16,778 nt of DNA from assembly GCF_003334255.1 (NCBI RefSeq), contig NZ_QOWU01000076.1. One strand, written 5' to 3'. The notes beneath the pieces are model-generated. The model searched no databases. It was not told where the DNA came from and worked only from the letters and a program-made list of their open reading frames with translations. The DNA comes from Escherichia coli (GTDB taxonomy: Bacteria; Pseudomonadota; Gammaproteobacteria; Enterobacterales; Enterobacteriaceae). Made by a program: the position numbers and the translations under genes. Every line of letters begins with the position of its first letter. The stretch's first letter is position 1. Shown here one piece after another: positions 1-9,697 of the stretch.

Positions 1-1
1 G

Positions 2-268
2 CAGTATCACGCAGAGCTGAAGAGTCTGACCGGTGCAGAAAGAACGGCGTTCATTGACGAGAACAACGGAAAATTGTTGATGAACGGGCTTATGCAGGAT
101 ACCCGGAAGAGACTGAAGGATTTGCGCAAACAGCGCGATGCCATTTATGCCGACAGTTCTCTCAGTCTGGCGCAGCAGGCGGCGATGGTGAAATCGGTAG
201 AGCGGGATATGAAGGTTGCCGTGGATCGCTTTAACCGCGAGTACAACAAAAAAGTGGGAGTGGATTAA
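2..268 (+). CDS. 3' end of a protein-coding gene that begins upstream of the window (C-terminal ~88 codons; charged, probably helical); product not identified
   Basis: Frame 2 is open from the window edge to the TAA at 266-268; the listed 64-aa ORF (74-268) is the tail of this longer frame. No family recognised from sequence. Confidence 0.35.
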   Translation, partial: QYHAELKSLTGAERTAFIDENNGKLLMNGLMQDTRKRLKDLRKQRDAIYADSSLSLAQQAAMVKSVERDMKVAVDRFNREYNKKVGVD

Positions 269-276
269 CAGAAATG

Positions 277-298
277 GCCCCGTACGGAAGTGCGGGGC
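277..298 (+). terminator. Stem-loop just downstream of the preceding stop codon (9-bp stem with one G-U pair, GGAA loop); weak or atypical terminator
   Basis: gccccgtac-ggaa-gtgcggggc begins 9 nt after the stop at 266-268, but the 3' flank (tgattaag) is not a U-tract, so canonical intrinsic termination is uncertain. Confidence 0.25.
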
Positions 299-418
299 TG
301 ATTAAGAAATAAACACACATTAACCTGTAATAACCGGAGCTATTAACATATAGTCAGAAAGAGTATTTCATGTGAGACAGAGAGCCGATTTATGTTTAAT
401 GAAGAAAAAGTTGCGTAA

Positions 419-943
419 ATGGCAGCGTATTTGCTGAAAAAACATGGCGGATCTATGCGTTTCATTAAGCTGATGTATCTCTCTGACCGCAAAGCAATGG
501 AGTTGTATGGTTTTCCCATTAGTGGTGATCATTATTTCTCTATGAACAAAGGACCCGTTTTATCGCAGACATATTCTTTGGTTAAGGATGGAAGTGAAAA
601 CGAGTACAGTCCGTGGGAATCATGGATATCTGATGTAGCGGATCATAAGGTTGAAATGTGGCGTACATTTTCTTCTGTTGATGAGCTGGGGGAGTTATCG
701 CCCGCAGAAATAGAGTCAATGGACATAATTTTTGGTCAATATGGAGGTTGGGATGCGTTCAGGCTTTGTGATGAAACTCACAGAATTTGCGGTGAGTGGC
801 GCGATCCGCATGGTTCATCAATTCCAATCAGCCTTAAGGATATATTTATTGCTCTTGGAAAGTCGCCAGAAGCAGCAACAGTAATGGCGAATAGCATTTA
901 TGCGCAAAATAATCTTGATATATTATTAAGTGATCTGAGGTAG
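419..943 (+). CDS. Panacea-domain (DUF4065, GepA/SocA-like, COG3600 phage-associated) protein, 174 aa
   Basis: The N-terminal region has the pattern I associate with DUF4065 (IKLMYLSDRKAMELYGFPISGDHYFSMNKGPVLSQTY, i.e. K-L-x-Y-L ... GPV ... Y). An in-frame ATG at 392 is followed by 8 codons and a TAA at 416-418 directly abutting this ATG. Confidence 0.55.
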   Translation: MAAYLLKKHGGSMRFIKLMYLSDRKAMELYGFPISGDHYFSMNKGPVLSQTYSLVKDGSENEYSPWESWISDVADHKVEMWRTFSSVDELGELSPAEIESMDIIFGQYGGWDAFRLCDETHRICGEWRDPHGSSIPISLKDIFIALGKSPEAATVMANSIYAQNNLDILLSDLR

Positions 944-1031
944 TCGGGATGATGTTCAGCCCTTATTTGTATTTACCGGGGAGGGAAGATGTTTAATTCC
1001 GATTCCCCGGCTCCACAGGCCTAACCTAACT

Positions 1032-1676
1032 TTATGTAACAGTCCATGCAGGGCTGAAATCTGCCTGCTGAAATAACTCCGTTAGCCCGCTAATCTGCTT
1101 TAACCTCAGAACTTCATCCTGGTCCATCCCCAGTTCTGTTCCGATACGTTCATCAGTCCAGCCAAGACGTGAAAGATCTCTGACAATATCAGACATTGAG
1201 GTTATCTGGTGTTTCCCCCTGGCTCTGTTATGTCGGATAGTCGCGGCAATACGTGAGGTTTGTCCCTTTCGGTCTGGATTAATACAGGTTACTGGTAGCC
1301 AGCCTTTCAGGCGTTTTCCAGTAACTGTTCTTCTACCTAGTAACTGCCTATGAAAACCATCCACCACCAGGTAATGGCTTGTTTCTTCCGAAACAACAAT
1401 TGGTTGAGTAAAACCGTCTTTTTCCAGAGATTGTTTCAGTAATTTTTTTTCGCTTGGGGCCATGACATTGGGATTATAATCGTTAGCGACAATTTCATCC
1501 GCTTTTACCCACAGCACACAGTCCACTGGTTCTTGAGCAAAGGGGCTGATCTCATGGAGTACGCAGCGGAGATGGTTCAGGGCCTGTATGGTTTTCTCTT
1601 CAGATTGTTCCTGACTGAAGTACTGTCGAATCATCTTGCTCAGCACCTCCACCTCTGGTGTCACAGAATTCCCCAT
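1032..1676 (-). CDS. ibrB: ParB-like nuclease-domain protein, IbrB-type (214 aa)
   Basis: ParB/Srx-type motif (LVVDGFHRQ) and C-terminal helix-turn-helix-like region; strong RBS (aaggaggaagga) before the ATG at 1674-1676; the start overlaps the 3' end of the upstream gene by 16 nt. Confidence 0.65.
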   Translation of the reverse strand: MGNSVTPEVEVLSKMIRQYFSQEQSEEKTIQALNHLRCVLHEISPFAQEPVDCVLWVKADEIVANDYNPNVMAPSEKKLLKQSLEKDGFTQPIVVSEETSHYLVVDGFHRQLLGRRTVTGKRLKGWLPVTCINPDRKGQTSRIAATIRHNRARGKHQITSMSDIVRDLSRLGWTDERIGTELGMDQDEVLRLKQISGLTELFQQADFSPAWTVT

Positions 1677-2887
1677 TCCTTCCTCCTTTCATTCATACGC
1701 TGCAGGTAACGTTCATAGTGCCGGGGTTTGTTGGGGCTGAAGGAGAGCGTTCGGCACCAGAAATCATTCTTTATGAGAGTCTTACAAATACGTCGCCAGG
1801 AGGGAACATCCCGGCAGCCCAGATCATTTTCCTGTTCATCCGGGATATCATCCGGGAATCCCCGGTTCTGATACCAGCGCAGGTAAACTGCTATCTTGTT
1901 GCGGTAGTGTTCAGCCGTTCTTTCCGGCATTACGTCCAGCAGGAAGAACGCATAGCTGCGCCAGGTATGATGGGATGGTTTTGACATCCGTTTACGCAGG
2001 GCAAAATAGGCCCCGCTTTCATTGGCATAAAGAGCCCCACTGGCAGCACCAGATACTCGTTCACACATCCGTGCCCAAGTTTCTGGCTCCAGAACATGAT
2101 AAAGCCATAGTCCCTTACGCTGTTCCGGGCCAAAAGGCTCACAGACACGCATATTACGTAGAGGAATGCCTGCGCGGTACATCAAATCATACAGAGGATT
2201 GTAGATTGCACAGGTTTTAGCGTTATATACCCAGATATCGTTGGTTTTCCAGTCATACAGCGGATACATGGTGTAGTAAAAACCTTCAGGTGACGCCGTG
2301 GTCCAGGGTTTATCATCTGCATATCTCAGTTTTCGTTGGGAAACCAGTCCCATAAATCTGTTAAGAGATTCATCCGCGCGGACTCCAGTCAGTATTGCCA
2401 CGCTACATTGGTTACTTGCGAACCAGGAAGAAAAAGCCGGGACAAATTCTTCAAAAGTCATGGCGTAGCGGTAAAAGGGGAAATACGCCATATCAGTAAT
2501 AGCATCTTCCGGTGGCTGTCGAACCCACTCTACACCGGGCTCCCAGCATATCCACTCAGGCTGAAACTGCGAGACACCATTTACTGTCGTCAGGGGAAGT
2601 GCAACCCAGTAAAAGGTATCTGTTACATCTTGGTACATCATCCGCATCTTCTGTATATGATCAATGGTGCATTGATACTGGGCTTCCCAGTCAATGAACA
2701 ATACAGAAAAACGACGTTTCTTCCTGTAGGCCACTTCGGCTACAAGATGGAAAAGTACAGTGGAATCTTTACCGCCAGAAAAAGATAAACATACAGAAGA
2801 GAATGTTTCAAACAACCATTCAATGCGGTGAATGGCTGCTGACAAAACATCTTCTCCAGTTCTGATTTTTGTTATAGTTACCGGCAT
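1661..2887 (-). CDS. ibrA: PAPS-reductase-family PP-loop protein with extended C-terminal domain, IbrA-type (408 aa)
   Basis: PP-loop motif SFSGGKDS near the N-terminus, typical of the PAPS reductase / DndC-like ATP pyrophosphatase family; the stop at 1661-1663 overlaps the ibrB start, suggesting translational coupling. No clear Shine-Dalgarno before the ATG at 2885-2887. Confidence 0.7.
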   Translation of the reverse strand: MPVTITKIRTGEDVLSAAIHRIEWLFETFSSVCLSFSGGKDSTVLFHLVAEVAYRKKRRFSVLFIDWEAQYQCTIDHIQKMRMMYQDVTDTFYWVALPLTTVNGVSQFQPEWICWEPGVEWVRQPPEDAITDMAYFPFYRYAMTFEEFVPAFSSWFASNQCSVAILTGVRADESLNRFMGLVSQRKLRYADDKPWTTASPEGFYYTMYPLYDWKTNDIWVYNAKTCAIYNPLYDLMYRAGIPLRNMRVCEPFGPEQRKGLWLYHVLEPETWARMCERVSGAASGALYANESGAYFALRKRMSKPSHHTWRSYAFFLLDVMPERTAEHYRNKIAVYLRWYQNRGFPDDIPDEQENDLGCRDVPSWRRICKTLIKNDFWCRTLSFSPNKPRHYERYLQRMNERRKEWGIL

Positions 2888-3053
2888 ACAATCTGATAAA
2901 AATAGCGAGGGTTTGCATTTTACCTAGTAACGTTATGTAACTATTTTTTTGAATAAAGGCAATGAGATAATGATAAAAAATGTTTATCTAATGTACTGAG
3001 CTCTTCTCTTTATTGTATTAACTCTTCGATTTCAGCGGCGTTGTCGTTCAGGT

Positions 3054-3078
3054 ATAAAAAAAGGAGCCGAAGCTCCTT
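3054..3078 (-). terminator. Intrinsic terminator for the minus-strand antirepressor gene
   Basis: On the minus-strand RNA: AAGGAGC-UUCG-GCUCCUU (7-bp stem, UUCG tetraloop) followed directly by UUUUUAU; sits 5 nt past the stop codon at 3084-3086. Confidence 0.7.
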
Positions 3079-3083
3079 TGGTA

Positions 3084-3713
3084 TCAGAATTCAAATTGTC
3101 TTGCCCGCAGGCTTTTCAGCATTGGTCTGGCCCGCTGAACTACGAAACTCGACTGGTCAAGCCGTGCCGCCTCTCTCAGTAGCACATCTCTGTTCTTCGT
3201 CACCATGTAGATAGTCTCAAACGCAATGTCATACAGCTTGTTCGTGTATGAGGAGTTCAGCTCTTTCATTATGGGGTACAGCTGCTTGCTAAGGTCCTGG
3301 GCTTTTTCCATCCAGAGCTGCATGTAGCAAAGGAGGATGATTTCCTCGGCTGTGAATTGCGGCTGTGGTTCTGCTTGTACTGGCTGAATGTTGCGAAGTT
3401 TCTTTTCGCACTCGATGAAGTAGCGGCGGATCTGGCGACCTTTTTCGTTACGTTCAACCATCGCAAGCTCTTTGGCTGTGTCGAGGGTGAGGTGGTAATC
3501 CTTGCGGCGGCGGCCTGGAGTTTTCGCCAAATTTGGCGAAAATAGAATGTAGTCTAAATTTTCTACGAATCCATACTCGTTTAGCCTGGCCCGTATCCAG
3601 TTAGAAAAATCTTTACCTACCTCTAAAAATCCATGCAAATCACGCGCGTTCACCAGAAGCGTAGGTTCATTTGAGATTGTACCTTCAAACACAGGGATGA
3701 GTTGAGTGGTCAT
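3084..3713 (-). CDS. Phage antirepressor, AntA/AntB N-terminal domain protein (about 209 aa from ATG at 3711-3713)
   Basis: N-terminal motif LIPVF...LVNARDLHGFLEVGKDFSNWIRARLNEYGFVENLDY matches the AntA-family pattern as I recall it; RBS aaggagg 5-11 nt upstream of the ATG. The listed 263-aa ORF has a 54-codon upstream extension with no RBS that overlaps the conserved leader, so the shorter start is preferred. Confidence 0.6.
   Translation of the reverse strand: MTTQLIPVFEGTISNEPTLLVNARDLHGFLEVGKDFSNWIRARLNEYGFVENLDYILFSPNLAKTPGRRRKDYHLTLDTAKELAMVERNEKGRQIRRYFIECEKKLRNIQPVQAEPQPQFTAEEIILLCYMQLWMEKAQDLSKQLYPIMKELNSSYTNKLYDIAFETIYMVTKNRDVLLREAARLDQSSFVVQRARPMLKSLRARQFEF
3454..3508. repeat. 55-bp direct repeat, copy 1 (54/55 identical to 3982-4036), inside the full-length antirepressor gene
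   Basis: Direct comparison: tcaaccatcgcaagctctttggctgtgtcgagggtgaggtggta[a/t]tccttgcgg; encodes HLTLDTAKELAMV in both paralogs, while flanking coding sequence is clearly diverged. Confidence 0.8.
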
Positions 3714-3801
3714 GATGACCTCCTTTGGCTTTTTTCGAGAAATGCCACCACAAGATGTGGTGCCGGGAGGCTCGAAACGGCCCAAAAGATACCGCGGACT
3801 T

Positions 3802-3824
3802 ATTCCCCTTGCGGGTGTTGTATT
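3802..3824 (-). promoter_or_regulatory. Conserved 23-nt leader motif, copy 1 (attccccttgcgggtgttgtatt), upstream of the full-length antirepressor gene
   Basis: Identical 23-mer at 4336-4358 upstream of the truncated paralog; both leaders also share caggcataaaaaa (3883-3895 and 4405-4417). Function not determined. Confidence 0.3.
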
Positions 3825-3962
3825 CGTCGCCCTCCCGACATTGATCGGGGATGTGACCGCACACTGTGCTATCACTGAATAACAGGCATAAAAAATCCAA
3901 CACTGACGGGGTTGGTTTAATCCGCTTTTGGGAGGTTTTCGAGGCCTCGGCGCGGAGTATAG

Positions 3963-4247
3963 TCAGTATTGGACGCAGTCGTCAACCATCGCAAGCTCTT
4001 TGGCTGTGTCGAGGGTGAGGTGGTATTCCTTGCGGTTGTGACCGCCTCTACCTTTTGCTTCCCGAATTTGGGAAGCAATCATATAGTCCTGATTTTCAAC
4101 GAAACCATATTCAGCAATACGTTCTGTTATCCACGATGCAAAGCGTTTACCAACCCCAAGGAAAGCGTGTAGATTGCGAGCATTGCATAGAAGGGCTGCT
4201 TGGTTTGAGATAGAACCGTTGAATACGGGGATGAGTTGACTGGTCAT
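3963..4247 (-). CDS. Truncated AntA-domain paralog (94 aa), probably a 5' gene remnant
   Basis: MTSQLIPVF...NARNLHAFLGVGKRFASWITERIAEYGFVENQDY parallels the downstream antirepressor N-terminus; same RBS (aaggagg) and start context; the ORF ends 7 codons after the shared 55-bp core. Confidence 0.45.
   Translation of the reverse strand: MTSQLIPVFNGSISNQAALLCNARNLHAFLGVGKRFASWITERIAEYGFVENQDYMIASQIREAKGRGGHNRKEYHLTLDTAKELAMVDDCVQY
3982..4036. repeat. 55-bp direct repeat, copy 2 (pairs with 3454-3508)
   Basis: See copy 1; single mismatch at 4026 versus 3498. Confidence 0.8.
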
Positions 4248-4335
4248 GATGACCTCCTTATTTGTTTAGTTTATAACCGCCAGTTAGTAGCTGGCGGTCG
4301 GGTGTCAACTGAGCCAAATAAGAAGCTCTGGGCAT

Positions 4336-4358
4336 ATTCCCCTTGCGGGTGTTGTATT
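4336..4358 (-). promoter_or_regulatory. Conserved 23-nt leader motif, copy 2
   Basis: Exact copy of 3802-3824; lies between the candidate promoter (4466-4495) and the RBS of the truncated antirepressor gene. Confidence 0.3.
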
Positions 4359-4465
4359 ACGCCTCTCCACCCGACCTTTGTACGGATGTAACTATGCCAA
4401 ATTGCAGGCATAAAAAAGCCGCAAAGCTATCGGGTGCGGAGACCGCTTATTTGTTCAGTGCGATC

Positions 4466-4495
4466 AGTATGCGATAGCTCTGGCGGATTTGTCAA
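4466..4495 (-). promoter_or_regulatory. Candidate sigma70 promoter reading leftward toward the antirepressor genes
   Basis: On the minus strand: TTGACA (plus 4490-4495), 18-bp spacer, CATACT (plus 4466-4471). Sequence match only; no experimental support. Confidence 0.3.
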
Positions 4496-4584
4496 ATCGT
4501 GCAGTAACATCCTTTTCTTCCTTGCCATTTCTCAATGATGACAAAGGGTGGATTCGGATTGGTATTGGGACAAAAGTGAGACAC

Positions 4585-4618
4585 ACAAAGCTTTGCATCG
4601 GCTTACAAAGCTTTGCAT
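4585..4618. promoter_or_regulatory. Operator-like element: two copies of acaaagctttgcat, each with a perfect 10-bp palindrome CAAAGCTTTG, centres 20 bp apart
   Basis: Direct reading: 4585-4598 and 4605-4618 are identical 14-mers; the core is self-complementary; spacing equals about two helical turns; located about 100 bp upstream of the candidate antirepressor promoter and about 75 bp from the ynfG junction. Confidence 0.35.
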
Positions 4619-4662
4619 GTTTTTCAATGTTGGGACGTGTGAGCGCAGAAATGACGGGCTAT

Positions 4663-4776
4663 CTAATTGATTTTAAACGATACGTAACCAACTTTAAAAT
4701 CTTTGCACGCCAGTTCGCAGGTTTTACAGCCAGTACAGCGGCTGGAATCGATAAAAAATCCATATTGTGTGGTCAT
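4663..4776 (-). pseudogene. ynfG: 5' fragment of ynfG (DmsB-like 4Fe-4S subunit gene): 28 native codons, then 9 foreign codons and a stop
   Basis: Translation from the ATG at 4774-4776 gives MTTQYGFFIDSSRCTGCKTCELACKDFK (matches the ferredoxin-type DmsB/YnfG N-terminus as I recall it), then VGYVSFKIN-stop; RBS aaggag sits 7 nt upstream of the ATG and 10 nt after the ynfF stop. Confidence 0.7.
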
Positions 4777-4786
4777 GGGCTACTCC

Positions 4787-7210
4787 TTAAACCTTTTCGA
4801 TCTGGACAAGATTGCTGTGCGACGGGTTTCCCTTTGCCAGCGGTGAAGGGCGGTGAGAGGTCAGAATATTGATACTGCCGCCGTGATCGACCCGGTCACC
4901 AAACATATCCGCTTTAAGCCACGCACCTTGCCCGATGGCGGTAACGCCAGGCAGAATACGCGGAGTCACTTTTGCGGCAATCAGCATTTCTCCATTATTG
5001 TTAAATACCCGCACGGTATCGCCATGACGGATACCGCGTGCCTGAGCATCAATGGGGTTGATCCACACCTCTTGTGGGCAGGCCTGCTGTAACACATCAA
5101 TATTGCCGTAGCTGGAGTGGGTACGCGCTTTGTAATGGAAGCCCGTTAACTGCAGTGGATAGGTTTTCCGCAGGGGATCGTCCCAGCCATCAAAACCTGG
5201 GGTATACGCAGGAAGGGGATGAATAATTTCATCTTTTTTCAATTCCCAGGTATCTGCAATCTTCGCCAGTCGTTCAGAATAAATTTCGATTTTCCCCGAA
5301 GGTGTTTTCAACGGGTTTGCCTGTGGATCTTCACGGAATGCGCGGAAAGCGACGTAGTGTTCTTCCGGGCATTTTTTCTTAAAGATCCCGGTCGTTTTCA
5401 TCTCCTCGTAGTCGGGCATCTCAGGGTTACGTTCCTTCGTTTTCGCATGGAGATATTTGATCCATTCATGCTGACTGCGACCTTCAGTAAAGGTTTGATA
5501 AACGTCTGGTCCTAAGCGTTTGGCGACTTCACTCAGCATCCAGTAGATGGGTTTGCGTTCAAATTTTGCTGAGGTTGCGGGTTGGGCGAGGATCACATAG
5601 CCCATATTCCCTGCAGATTCATGAGAGATAAGGTCTTCTTGCTCTGTTGGCATCAGGTCGGGCAACAGGATATCGCAATACTTAGCCGAGGCCGTCATGA
5701 AGTGGTCAATGCCAACAATCATCTCGCACTTGCTGTCATCCTGAAGCACCTCATGGGTGTGATTGATGTCGCCATGTTGATTGATCAATGTGTTACTGGC
5801 GTAGCACCATAAAAACTTGATGGGGACATCCAGTTTTTCTTTTCCACGAACACCATCACGGGTCGCGGTCATTTCCGTACCATGGTCGATGGCATCTGTC
5901 CATGTAAAGACGGAAATCTGCGTTTTAACAGGATTCTCGAGCATCGGGAACCATTCTACCCCCAGATCCCAGCTACCTTCGCGTACGCCTGAGTTGCCGC
6001 CGTTTATGCCGACGTTGCCGGTGAGAACGGAAAGCATGGCAATAGCGCGGGATGTTTGCTCGCCGTTGGAATGTCGTTGTGGCCCCCAACCCTGACAAAT
6101 ATAAGCAGGTTTTGCTGAACCGATCTCTCGTGCCAACTGGATAATTTTTTCTGCCGGGATGCTGGTGATTTTTGCTGCCCATTCCGGCGTTTTAGCTATG
6201 CCGTCAGGCCCTTCGCCCAGAATATAGGCTTTATAATGCGCGTTACGTGGTGCGTTGGCGGGCAGCGTTTTTTCATCGTAACCAACACAATATTTGTCGA
6301 GAAATGGCTGATCGACCATGTTTTCAGTAATCAGTACCCAGGCAATCGCACAGGCCAGTGCGCCATCGGTGCCAGGGCGAATGGGCAGCCATTCATCTTC
6401 ACGCCCGGCAGCAGTGTCGTTATAACGTGGATCGATGACGATCATGCGTGCGTTTGAACGTTCGCGGGCTTGCTCGACGTAGTAAGTGACACCACCGCCG
6501 CTCATCCGCGTTTCTGCCGGGTTATTTCCGAACATAACGACCAGTTTCGTATTGGCGATATCATCCGGGCTGTTGCCATCATTGGCACCGAACATATAAC
6601 TCATTGCGGCACTGATCTGTGCGGTACTGTAGCTGCCATAGCGACTGAGAAAACCACCGCAAGAGTTCATCAGACGGTACGGGACGTTTGAGTTGGTGAT
6701 GTTTCCGCCATCTACGCCTGTTCCGTACAGGACATGTACAGCCTCATTGCCGTAATCTTTCAGGATCCGCCGAAGATTATCACTGATGGTATCTAGGGCT
6801 TCGTCCCAACTTATCCGTTCAAATTTACCTTCACCGCGCTTGCCGACGCGCTTCATGGGATATTTCAACCTATCAGGATGATTCATCCGTCGGCGGATAG
6901 AGCGCCCGCGTAAACACGCTCGAACCTGATGATTACCGTAGACGTCGTCACCTGTCGTATCAGACTCCACCCAGTACACGGTGTCATCTTTCACATGCAA
7001 ACGTAACAGACAGCGGCTCCCGCAGTTAACGGTGCAGGAACTCCAGACCGCTTTCTCTTCTACCGGAGCCTCTGCCGCCCGGACCATTTGGGAAAATGGC
7101 AGAGTGAAAGCACTGCTTGCCAGCGCAAGACTGCCAAGTGCGGAGGTTTTCATCAGACTTCTACGGCTGATTTCAGCCTTCATGAGCGCCTCTGTGGTAT
7201 GGATTTTCAT
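4787..7210 (-). CDS. ynfF: Tat-exported molybdopterin (bis-MGD) oxidoreductase catalytic subunit, DMSO-reductase family paralog YnfF
   Basis: Twin-arginine signal (ISRRSLMK), N-terminal Cys cluster (CTVNCGSRC), about 808 aa with typical DmsA-family length. Start taken at the second of two adjacent ATGs (alternative start 7213). Confidence 0.9.
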   Translation of the reverse strand: MKIHTTEALMKAEISRRSLMKTSALGSLALASSAFTLPFSQMVRAAEAPVEEKAVWSSCTVNCGSRCLLRLHVKDDTVYWVESDTTGDDVYGNHQVRACLRGRSIRRRMNHPDRLKYPMKRVGKRGEGKFERISWDEALDTISDNLRRILKDYGNEAVHVLYGTGVDGGNITNSNVPYRLMNSCGGFLSRYGSYSTAQISAAMSYMFGANDGNSPDDIANTKLVVMFGNNPAETRMSGGGVTYYVEQARERSNARMIVIDPRYNDTAAGREDEWLPIRPGTDGALACAIAWVLITENMVDQPFLDKYCVGYDEKTLPANAPRNAHYKAYILGEGPDGIAKTPEWAAKITSIPAEKIIQLAREIGSAKPAYICQGWGPQRHSNGEQTSRAIAMLSVLTGNVGINGGNSGVREGSWDLGVEWFPMLENPVKTQISVFTWTDAIDHGTEMTATRDGVRGKEKLDVPIKFLWCYASNTLINQHGDINHTHEVLQDDSKCEMIVGIDHFMTASAKYCDILLPDLMPTEQEDLISHESAGNMGYVILAQPATSAKFERKPIYWMLSEVAKRLGPDVYQTFTEGRSQHEWIKYLHAKTKERNPEMPDYEEMKTTGIFKKKCPEEHYVAFRAFREDPQANPLKTPSGKIEIYSERLAKIADTWELKKDEIIHPLPAYTPGFDGWDDPLRKTYPLQLTGFHYKARTHSSYGNIDVLQQACPQEVWINPIDAQARGIRHGDTVRVFNNNGEMLIAAKVTPRILPGVTAIGQGAWLKADMFGDRVDHGGSINILTSHRPSPLAKGNPSHSNLVQIEKV

Positions 7211-7270
7211 CATTACTCACTTATTGCTTTTCAAACAAAATGTCATGCCAGAATTTATGGTTGTCGTGGG

Positions 7271-9697: not shown

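Follow-up and report, generated by a model that had tools for sequence, protein, structure and literature searches.

The catalytic subunits encoded by ynfE and ynfF belong to an operon, ynfEFGH-dmsD, that has been described in Escherichia coli K-12 and in Salmonella; its selenate and tellurate reductase activity is known from genetics alone in both (PMC5203670, PMC12724226, and Fujita 2021 as cited in PMC12096835). Here we examine a 16.8-kb stretch of E. coli DNA (contig NZ_QOWU01000076.1, 16,778 nucleotides; hereafter "the window") in which ynfE and ynfF stand beside a ynfG gene that has been split by a prophage. Following the published roles of YnfE, YnfF, YnfG, YnfH, and DmsD (PMC5203670, PMC12724226), the intact operon may be pictured as follows: YnfE or YnfF would be bound by DmsD, gain its cofactors, and be exported by way of twin-arginine translocation (Tat), probably together with the four-cluster ferredoxin YnfG; the exported subunit would then dock on the membrane anchor YnfH, and electrons from menaquinol would pass through the YnfG clusters to the molybdenum site.

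Two further bodies of work frame the comparison. The ynfG gene is a published attachment site of Shiga toxin 1 (Stx1) phages—POCJ-13, Shigella phage 75/02 (S. sonnei 75/02), and the Stx1a prophage of strain RM10410 (PMC10562709, PMC5447701)—and, according to a 2026 pangenome study, ynfE and ynfF are among the metabolic genes that E. coli most often carries as pseudogenes (PMC13322260).

The locus resembles the K-12/Salmonella operon in having the same genes, proteins identical to those of K-12 (YnfE, YnfF, YnfH, and DmsD carry the same RefSeq protein accessions), the same 71% identity between the paralogues, and the same neighbours upstream of ynfE, namely ynfD, ynfC, and speG. Over its whole length the window agrees at 100% with the chromosome of E. 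coli G1/2, a strain isolated in Germany from the faeces of a healthy person. Unlike the described operon, the G1/2 copy has a 62-kb prophage inserted in ynfG, which separates ynfH and dmsD from the ynfE promoter. We consider it very likely that the window holds an intact, K-12-like ynfE/ynfF pair next to a ynfG gene interrupted by a recent and possibly reversible prophage, and that the pair carries no signal of decay. The features on which this reading turns are:

7271..9697, minus strand: ynfE, 808 amino acids, catalytic molybdenum-bis(molybdopterin guanine dinucleotide) subunit of a selenate/tellurate reductase (WP_000041675.1, as in K-12)
4787..7213, minus strand: ynfF, the paralogous catalytic subunit, 808 amino acids from the first ATG (WP_001340362.1, as in K-12)
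4692..4776, minus strand: 5' remnant of ynfG, nucleotides 1-85, coding for residues 1-28 and including the first CxxCxxCxxxC motif
4692..4698, minus strand: attR core TTTAAAG, with a second copy at the other prophage end, by the 540-nt 3' ynfG fragment
1..4691, unstranded: right end of a prophage of about 62 kb, 933W-like and stx-less

A first-pass annotation, made from the letters of the window, had described two adjacent 808-codon genes, and both open reading frames (ORFs) are present; the sole small departure is that RefSeq starts ynfF at 7210, the second of two adjacent ATG codons, which gives 807 amino acids. Of 5426 complete E. coli genomes, 5323 have a match to the 4911-bp ynfE/ynfF stretch, annotated there too as ynfE and ynfF. 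As a finding, the pair is ordinary and already known, as the first-pass annotation correctly held: known genes in a known arrangement, beside a known prophage attachment site.

The same annotation reported that the downstream iron-sulfur gene is disrupted and left the cause unnamed. The disruption is borne out, with only nucleotides 1-85 of ynfG left in the window before phage DNA begins, and its cause is a clean site-specific prophage integration. The gene starts at 4776 (minus strand), matches K-12 for exactly 85 nt, and then diverges into phage DNA, into which the stub reads to form a 37-aa ORF. The other 540 nt of ynfG are found about 62 kb away in the G1/2 chromosome, where they and the intact ynfH and dmsD genes follow directly downstream of int in the same orientation; at this far junction a gap of 52 nt separates the end of the site-specific integrase gene from the 3' ynfG fragment. 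The two pieces of ynfG (85 nt and 540 nt) overlap by the 7 bp TTTAAAG, the duplicated attachment core, which lies in codons 27-29. Window positions 1-4675 are 100% identical to the end of Escherichia phage PhiR5_2 (PV340546.1; stated host MG1655), and the int-side 11.4 kb of the G1/2 prophage is 99.6% identical to it. The marks of site-specific integration—a duplicated core, an integrase at one end, and a match to a phage genome—are thus all present, and what G1/2 carries is not a contiguous ynfE-ynfF-ynfG-ynfH-dmsD operon with an intact four-cluster ferredoxin gene. The same phage-ynfG'-ynfF junction occurs in 82 of the 5426 complete genomes, including O104:H4 2011C-3493 and RM10410.

That the break in ynfG arose as an artefact of assembly, or by chance rearrangement, and not by phage integration is hardly credible. 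The G1/2 prophage and PhiR5_2 are indeed separated by many small indels (one 13-kb alignment has 50 gap openings), and several of its genes are annotated as frameshifted, a combination that suggests an error-prone G1/2 assembly; however, the junction is identical in 82 independent complete genomes, the 7-bp core is exactly duplicated with the integrase at the opposite prophage end, and the same site in ynfG has been reported in print (PMC10562709, PMC5447701).

The course of events can be sketched in a few steps. A PhiR5_2-like temperate phage has integrated by tyrosine-integrase recombination at TTTAAAG in ynfG, and the operon now lies in two parts. One, behind the native promoter, consists of ynfE, ynfF, and the first 28 codons of ynfG; the other, 62 kb away and downstream of the phage int, consists of the 3' part of ynfG, without its first Cys motif, and of ynfH and dmsD. 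YnfG is non-functional while the prophage is present, since the first CxxCxxCxxxC motif is missing from the 3' fragment and no substitute for it comes from the phage. With no cognate electron-transfer partner for YnfE and YnfF, quinol-linked selenate and tellurate reduction would then probably be lost or much reduced. Precise excision of the prophage would restore ynfG, provided that the excision functions of the phage are intact. We also considered a phage-supplied 5' end that rebuilds YnfG and rejected it: the reading frame is closed by a stop 14 codons upstream of the junction, and the first Cys motif is missing.

The first-pass annotation had asked whether both paralogues are still maintained by selection, and had proposed an alignment against the reference proteins with a check of the functional residues and of the ratio of non-synonymous to synonymous substitution rates (dN/dS). 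Against K-12, ynfE has 0 nucleotide differences and ynfF has one, a synonymous change at codon 140 (CTA versus CTG), with none non-synonymous across the 4911 bases. The Tat motifs, the Cys groups, and the residue Ser196 are all unaltered. With 0 non-synonymous differences and 1 synonymous one, dN/dS against the reference is undefined, and thus uninformative. We infer that the ynfG insertion is too recent to have left any mark on ynfE and ynfF; a recent insertion that is precisely reversible, if the excision functions are intact, would leave the two genes without degeneration.

The functional sites that were compared are the following:

9647..9667, minus strand: YnfE twin-arginine motif SRRTLVK, residues 11-17, followed by a hydrophobic stretch
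7148..7168, minus strand: YnfF twin-arginine motif SRRSLMK, residues 16-22 of the 808-aa ORF, followed by a hydrophobic stretch
9410..9532, minus strand: YnfE Cys group C56-X3-C60-X3-C64-X31-C96, predicted [4Fe-4S] FS0 site
6914..7036, minus strand: YnfF Cys group C60-X3-C64-X3-C68-X31-C100, predicted FS0 [4Fe-4S] site
9110..9112, minus strand: YnfE Ser196 codon, aligned with Ser147 of Rhodobacter sphaeroides dimethyl sulfoxide (DMSO) reductase (1EU1)
6626..6628, minus strand: YnfF Ser196 codon, in a YGSYSTAQ motif as in YnfE

These sites, together with the domain content, agree with the earlier description of two DMSO-reductase-family catalytic subunits, each with its own twin-arginine leader and Cys cluster (C56/60/64/96 in YnfE and C60/64/68/100 in YnfF). 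Both proteins contain, in order, an N-terminal Fe4S4 domain (PF04879, Molybdop_Fe4S4), a molybdopterin oxidoreductase domain (PF00384, Molybdopterin), and a C-terminal molybdopterin-dinucleotide-binding domain (PF01568, Molydop_binding), with Pfam E-values from 1e-12 to 1e-69. YnfE scores 1796.1 on NCBIfam NF041885 against a curated cut-off of 1675, YnfF scores 1774.7 on NF041884 against a cut-off of 1650, and each falls below the cut-off of its paralogue's family. The Cys group is invariant across 20 to 22 E. coli sequences. Ser147 of 1EU1 is the molybdenum ligand; the PDB copy searched has no solved structure of E. coli DmsA or YnfE, and the nearest structures are Rhodobacter DorA and TorA-type enzymes. 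The Pfam TAT_signal model matches YnfF only, and weakly (E = 0.14, too weak for use alone); the leaders themselves have been studied by experiment, both for their function (PMC5203670, PMC3316669) and for their dependence on Tat and DmsD (PMC5203670).

At the level of the population, we compared ynfE and ynfF from 11 genomes that carry the prophage junction (lysogens) with those from 11 that lack it, of which 10 had a usable ynfF. The ratios of non-synonymous to synonymous nucleotide diversity (piN/piS) were:

ynfE: 0.061 in lysogens (n=11), 0.068 in non-lysogens (n=11)
ynfF: 0.028 in lysogens (n=11), 0.040 in non-lysogens (n=10)

These values indicate strong purifying selection on both paralogues, equally in lysogens and non-lysogens, as far as can be judged from sequence diversity. 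Private amino-acid variants are similarly frequent in the two groups (8 in ynfE and 6 in ynfF among lysogens, 11 and 9 among non-lysogens), and none of the amino-acid variants in the sample falls at a Tat motif, a Cys group, or Ser196. Among the best-matching lysogens listed, 59 of 60 have ynfE and ynfF under their own gene names, in a listing that does not flag frameshift or nonsense pseudogenes. As for the selection question, then, neither piN/piS nor the frequency of lesions speaks for a relaxation of selection in lysogens in particular, and the functional residues are conserved throughout.

Several observations weigh against the view that the pair beside the prophage is free of decay, or that the insertion is reversible. 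Four lysogens carry lesions in the paralogues: ynfE is interrupted by ISEc8 in SCU-104 and by an insertion in EC2, and is frameshifted from A7 to A6 in 2013C-3033, and ynfF has a premature stop at W81 (TGG to TGA) in 2012C-4502. The population test has low power, as most of the branches sampled are older than the insertions, and clonal groups of lysogens, O104:H4 among them, have no internal variation. In the G1/2 prophage, several structural genes are annotated as frameshifted and a truncated helix-turn-helix gene lies next to int; the prophage may therefore no longer excise efficiently.

The four lesions, taken together with a lack of divergence from K-12 that is equally expected of a very young insertion, could be read in another way: with YnfG lost, ynfE and ynfF would be without function and already drifting under relaxed selection, their intactness reflecting too little elapsed time. 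We regard this as improbable. Lesions in ynfE or ynfF are at least as common where ynfG is intact, being found in 12 of 45 genomes spaced evenly through the ranking, which represent the species background; an enrichment of lesions in lysogens is thus not supported. In addition, the ynfE frameshift of lysogen 2013C-3033 is also found in O26:H11 strain 11368, in which ynfG is intact, and 546 of 5426 complete genomes carry the ynfF double deletion of sequence type 131 (ST131), with ynfE, ynfG, ynfH, and dmsD intact. The equal piN/piS of lysogens and non-lysogens and the unaltered functional residues likewise speak against relaxed selection.

Some details of these lesions may be added. Of the 11 lysogens examined, 2012C-4502 (ynfF at 491-2914 of its locus) alone has a clear substitution-type knockout, the W81 stop. 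The A7 run of ynfE lies at about 7876-7882, around nucleotide 1816 of the gene, and its shortening to A6 gives a first stop at codon 663; the ynfE genes of 11368 and 2013C-3033 differ at 21 further positions, and the shared frameshift suggests a homopolymer hot spot, recombination, or a site prone to sequencing error. The ST131 ynfF has two frame-breaking deletions of 580 and 274 bp (gene nucleotides 718-1297 and 2072-2345), seen in strain Z0117EC0013, where the ynfF copy spans 2501-4070 of its locus and ynfE, ynfG, ynfH, and dmsD are intact. The junction of the first deletion defines the 546 genomes, and since these include SE15 and strains labelled O25b:H4-ST131, we identify the group with the ST131 lineage; there, ynfF looks like a fixed pseudogene. 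Lineage-specific pseudogenisation of the kind already published (PMC13322260) is therefore seen here too, for ynfF in ST131 and for ynfE in O26:H11; in contrast, neither paralogue is a pseudogene in this window, and the broken gene is ynfG. Frequent pseudogenisation fits with the small contribution of YnfF to selenate reduction in Salmonella (PMC5203670) and with the description of YnfE and YnfF as isoenzymes (PMC12724226).

A second alternative holds that YnfE and YnfF are still useful in lysogens because they borrow DmsB and DmsC, the paralogous subunits of DMSO reductase, dmsD being expressed either from the int side or by an internal promoter; it would then cost little to carry the insertion, and purifying selection would continue. 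Subunits of YnfFGH and DmsABC are reportedly interchangeable in part (Lubitz and Weiner 2003, cited in PMC12096835). In G1/2, intact copies of dmsD and ynfH follow directly downstream of int and the ynfG fragment, in the same orientation; the junction has persisted across many unrelated lineages, in which ynfE and ynfF are for the most part intact; and Enterobacter cloacae SrnA works with partner subunits from E. coli (PMC12724226). Persistence of intact genes is, however, also expected from recency alone, and we consider borrowing possible, though unlikely.

More speculative still, and in our estimate quite improbable, is a scheme in which the ynfG phage would act as a reversible switch: YnfE and YnfF would be cut off from YnfG and YnfH, dmsD would come under int-side transcription, the catalytic subunits would be selected through DmsB and DmsC, and anaerobiosis would be coupled to derepression of the prophage. 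The anaerobically induced ynfE promoter does face the phage antirepressor genes, which follow about 0.4-1 kb downstream on the same strand; the stretch from ynfG' to these ant genes contains a promoter-like site and hairpins, so that read-through from the ynfE promoter is uncertain.

Under the preferred reading—an intact pair beside a recently split ynfG—the locus is a reminder that an operon found broken in a genome scan may have been split by a recent, possibly reversible prophage insertion and not by decay, and that paralogues flanking a prophage-split ynfG are not to be read as relics. The strains that carry the junction (at least 82 complete genomes, O104:H4 outbreak strains included) probably lack YnfG-dependent selenate/tellurate reductase; in them dmsD, which is needed for maturation of DMSO reductase, is detached from its native promoter, and this could be relevant to their anaerobic physiology. 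The wider pattern is in the literature already—where intact, ynfE and ynfF are each under strong purifying selection, yet successful lineages have repeatedly lost them—and the finding matters little beyond annotation.

YnfE and YnfF fall with DmsA, the catalytic subunit of the DmsABC DMSO reductase, in the TIGR02166 subfamily (dmsA_ynfE, passed with scores of 1401 and 1286, respectively); also common to them are a Tat leader that DmsD recognises, the N-terminal Cys group, and the motif with the serine ligand. They differ from it in scoring 1343 and 1321 against a DmsA-specific cut-off of 1600, and in that their reported substrates are selenate and tellurate, not DMSO (PMC5203670, PMC12096835).

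The first-pass description of the two genes as closely related paralogues holds at 71% protein identity over 801 residues, and they are old tandem paralogues. Their codon alignment has 70% nucleotide identity, with a dS of about 2.1 (saturated) and a dN of 0.21. Since Salmonella has the same pair, likewise 71% identical (PMC5203670), the duplication predates the Escherichia-Salmonella split. Recent gene conversion was considered and dismissed: no 30-codon window is more than 83% identical, and identical runs reach at most 17 nt.

Two non-coding features accompany the pair:

7214..7270, minus strand: ynfE-ynfF spacer, 57 nt, with a Shine-Dalgarno-like GTGAG motif just 5' of the ynfF ATG
9797..9810, plus strand: FNR-box-like sequence TTAATCCATATCAA, 100 nt upstream of the ynfE ATG, with one mismatch to the consensus

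A search of the spacer for internal promoter-like or terminator-like sites found none. The FNR-box-like site is consistent with an anaerobic promoter, yet it is not statistically distinctive: the pattern is not enriched in the window, with 15 matches against 12 expected by chance.

The prophage itself is lambdoid. Its gene content in G1/2 includes cI/cro/cII and Red genes, an esterase of the NanS type and a capsid gene of the N4-gp56 type, along with a very large gene with an LPD38 domain, ibrAB-like genes, and antirepressors, and no stx is found among its annotated genes; terminase, portal, capsid, replication, and other genes (16524-37611 of the G1/2 locus) are annotated as frameshifted, which reflects either an indel-prone assembly or a decaying prophage and bears on its ability to excise. 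Like the Stx1 phages described in ynfG (POCJ-13, 75/02, and the RM10410 Stx1a prophage), it uses this gene for attachment, and its junction is identical to that of RM10410; unlike them, it has no annotated stx, and its closest relative is the stx-less PhiR5_2, of which a literature search turned up no description. The phage end matches 75/02 over 43% of its length at 94% identity, and 933W over 36% at 89%. Within the window, its right end runs from the tail of the LPD38-domain gene through a gene with a Panacea domain, ibrB/ibrA-like genes, and two antirepressor genes to the attR arm; the annotation gives:

1-268: end of the frameshifted 8.4-kb LPD38-domain gene
419-943, plus strand: Panacea-domain gene
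1032-1676, minus strand: IbrB-like gene
1661-2887, minus strand: IbrA-like gene of the PAPS-reductase family

Two matches to the Rfam family sRNA-Xcc1 (RF02221), at 3754-3839 and 4288-4376 (both minus strand), score 73 and 69 bits, above the gathering score. Each lies just 5' of an antirepressor (antA/AntB) ORF at the prophage end, so that the ant genes seem to have a repeated 5' leader element. In the attR arm, at 4583-4618 (minus strand) and 75-110 nt from the core, there are two tandem copies of ATGCAAAGCTTTGT, each with the palindrome CAAAGCTTTG; they appear as a 17-pair hairpin in a hairpin scan and could be binding sites for recombination proteins.

Identity of 100% over the window was found in three genomes, those of strains G1/2, G6/7, and G8 (NZ_CP060083.1, NZ_CP060061.1, and NZ_CP060057.1), names that appear to match components of the probiotic E. 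coli preparation Symbioflor 2. A second prophage begins right after rspB, at 15058-16624 (minus strand), with an intact integrase (annotated 15058-16338) and an excisionase (16373-16624), and runs on into a Qin-like region (dicB, dicA, relBE, hokD); the K-12 integrase at this position is an N-terminally truncated pseudogene beside IS2.

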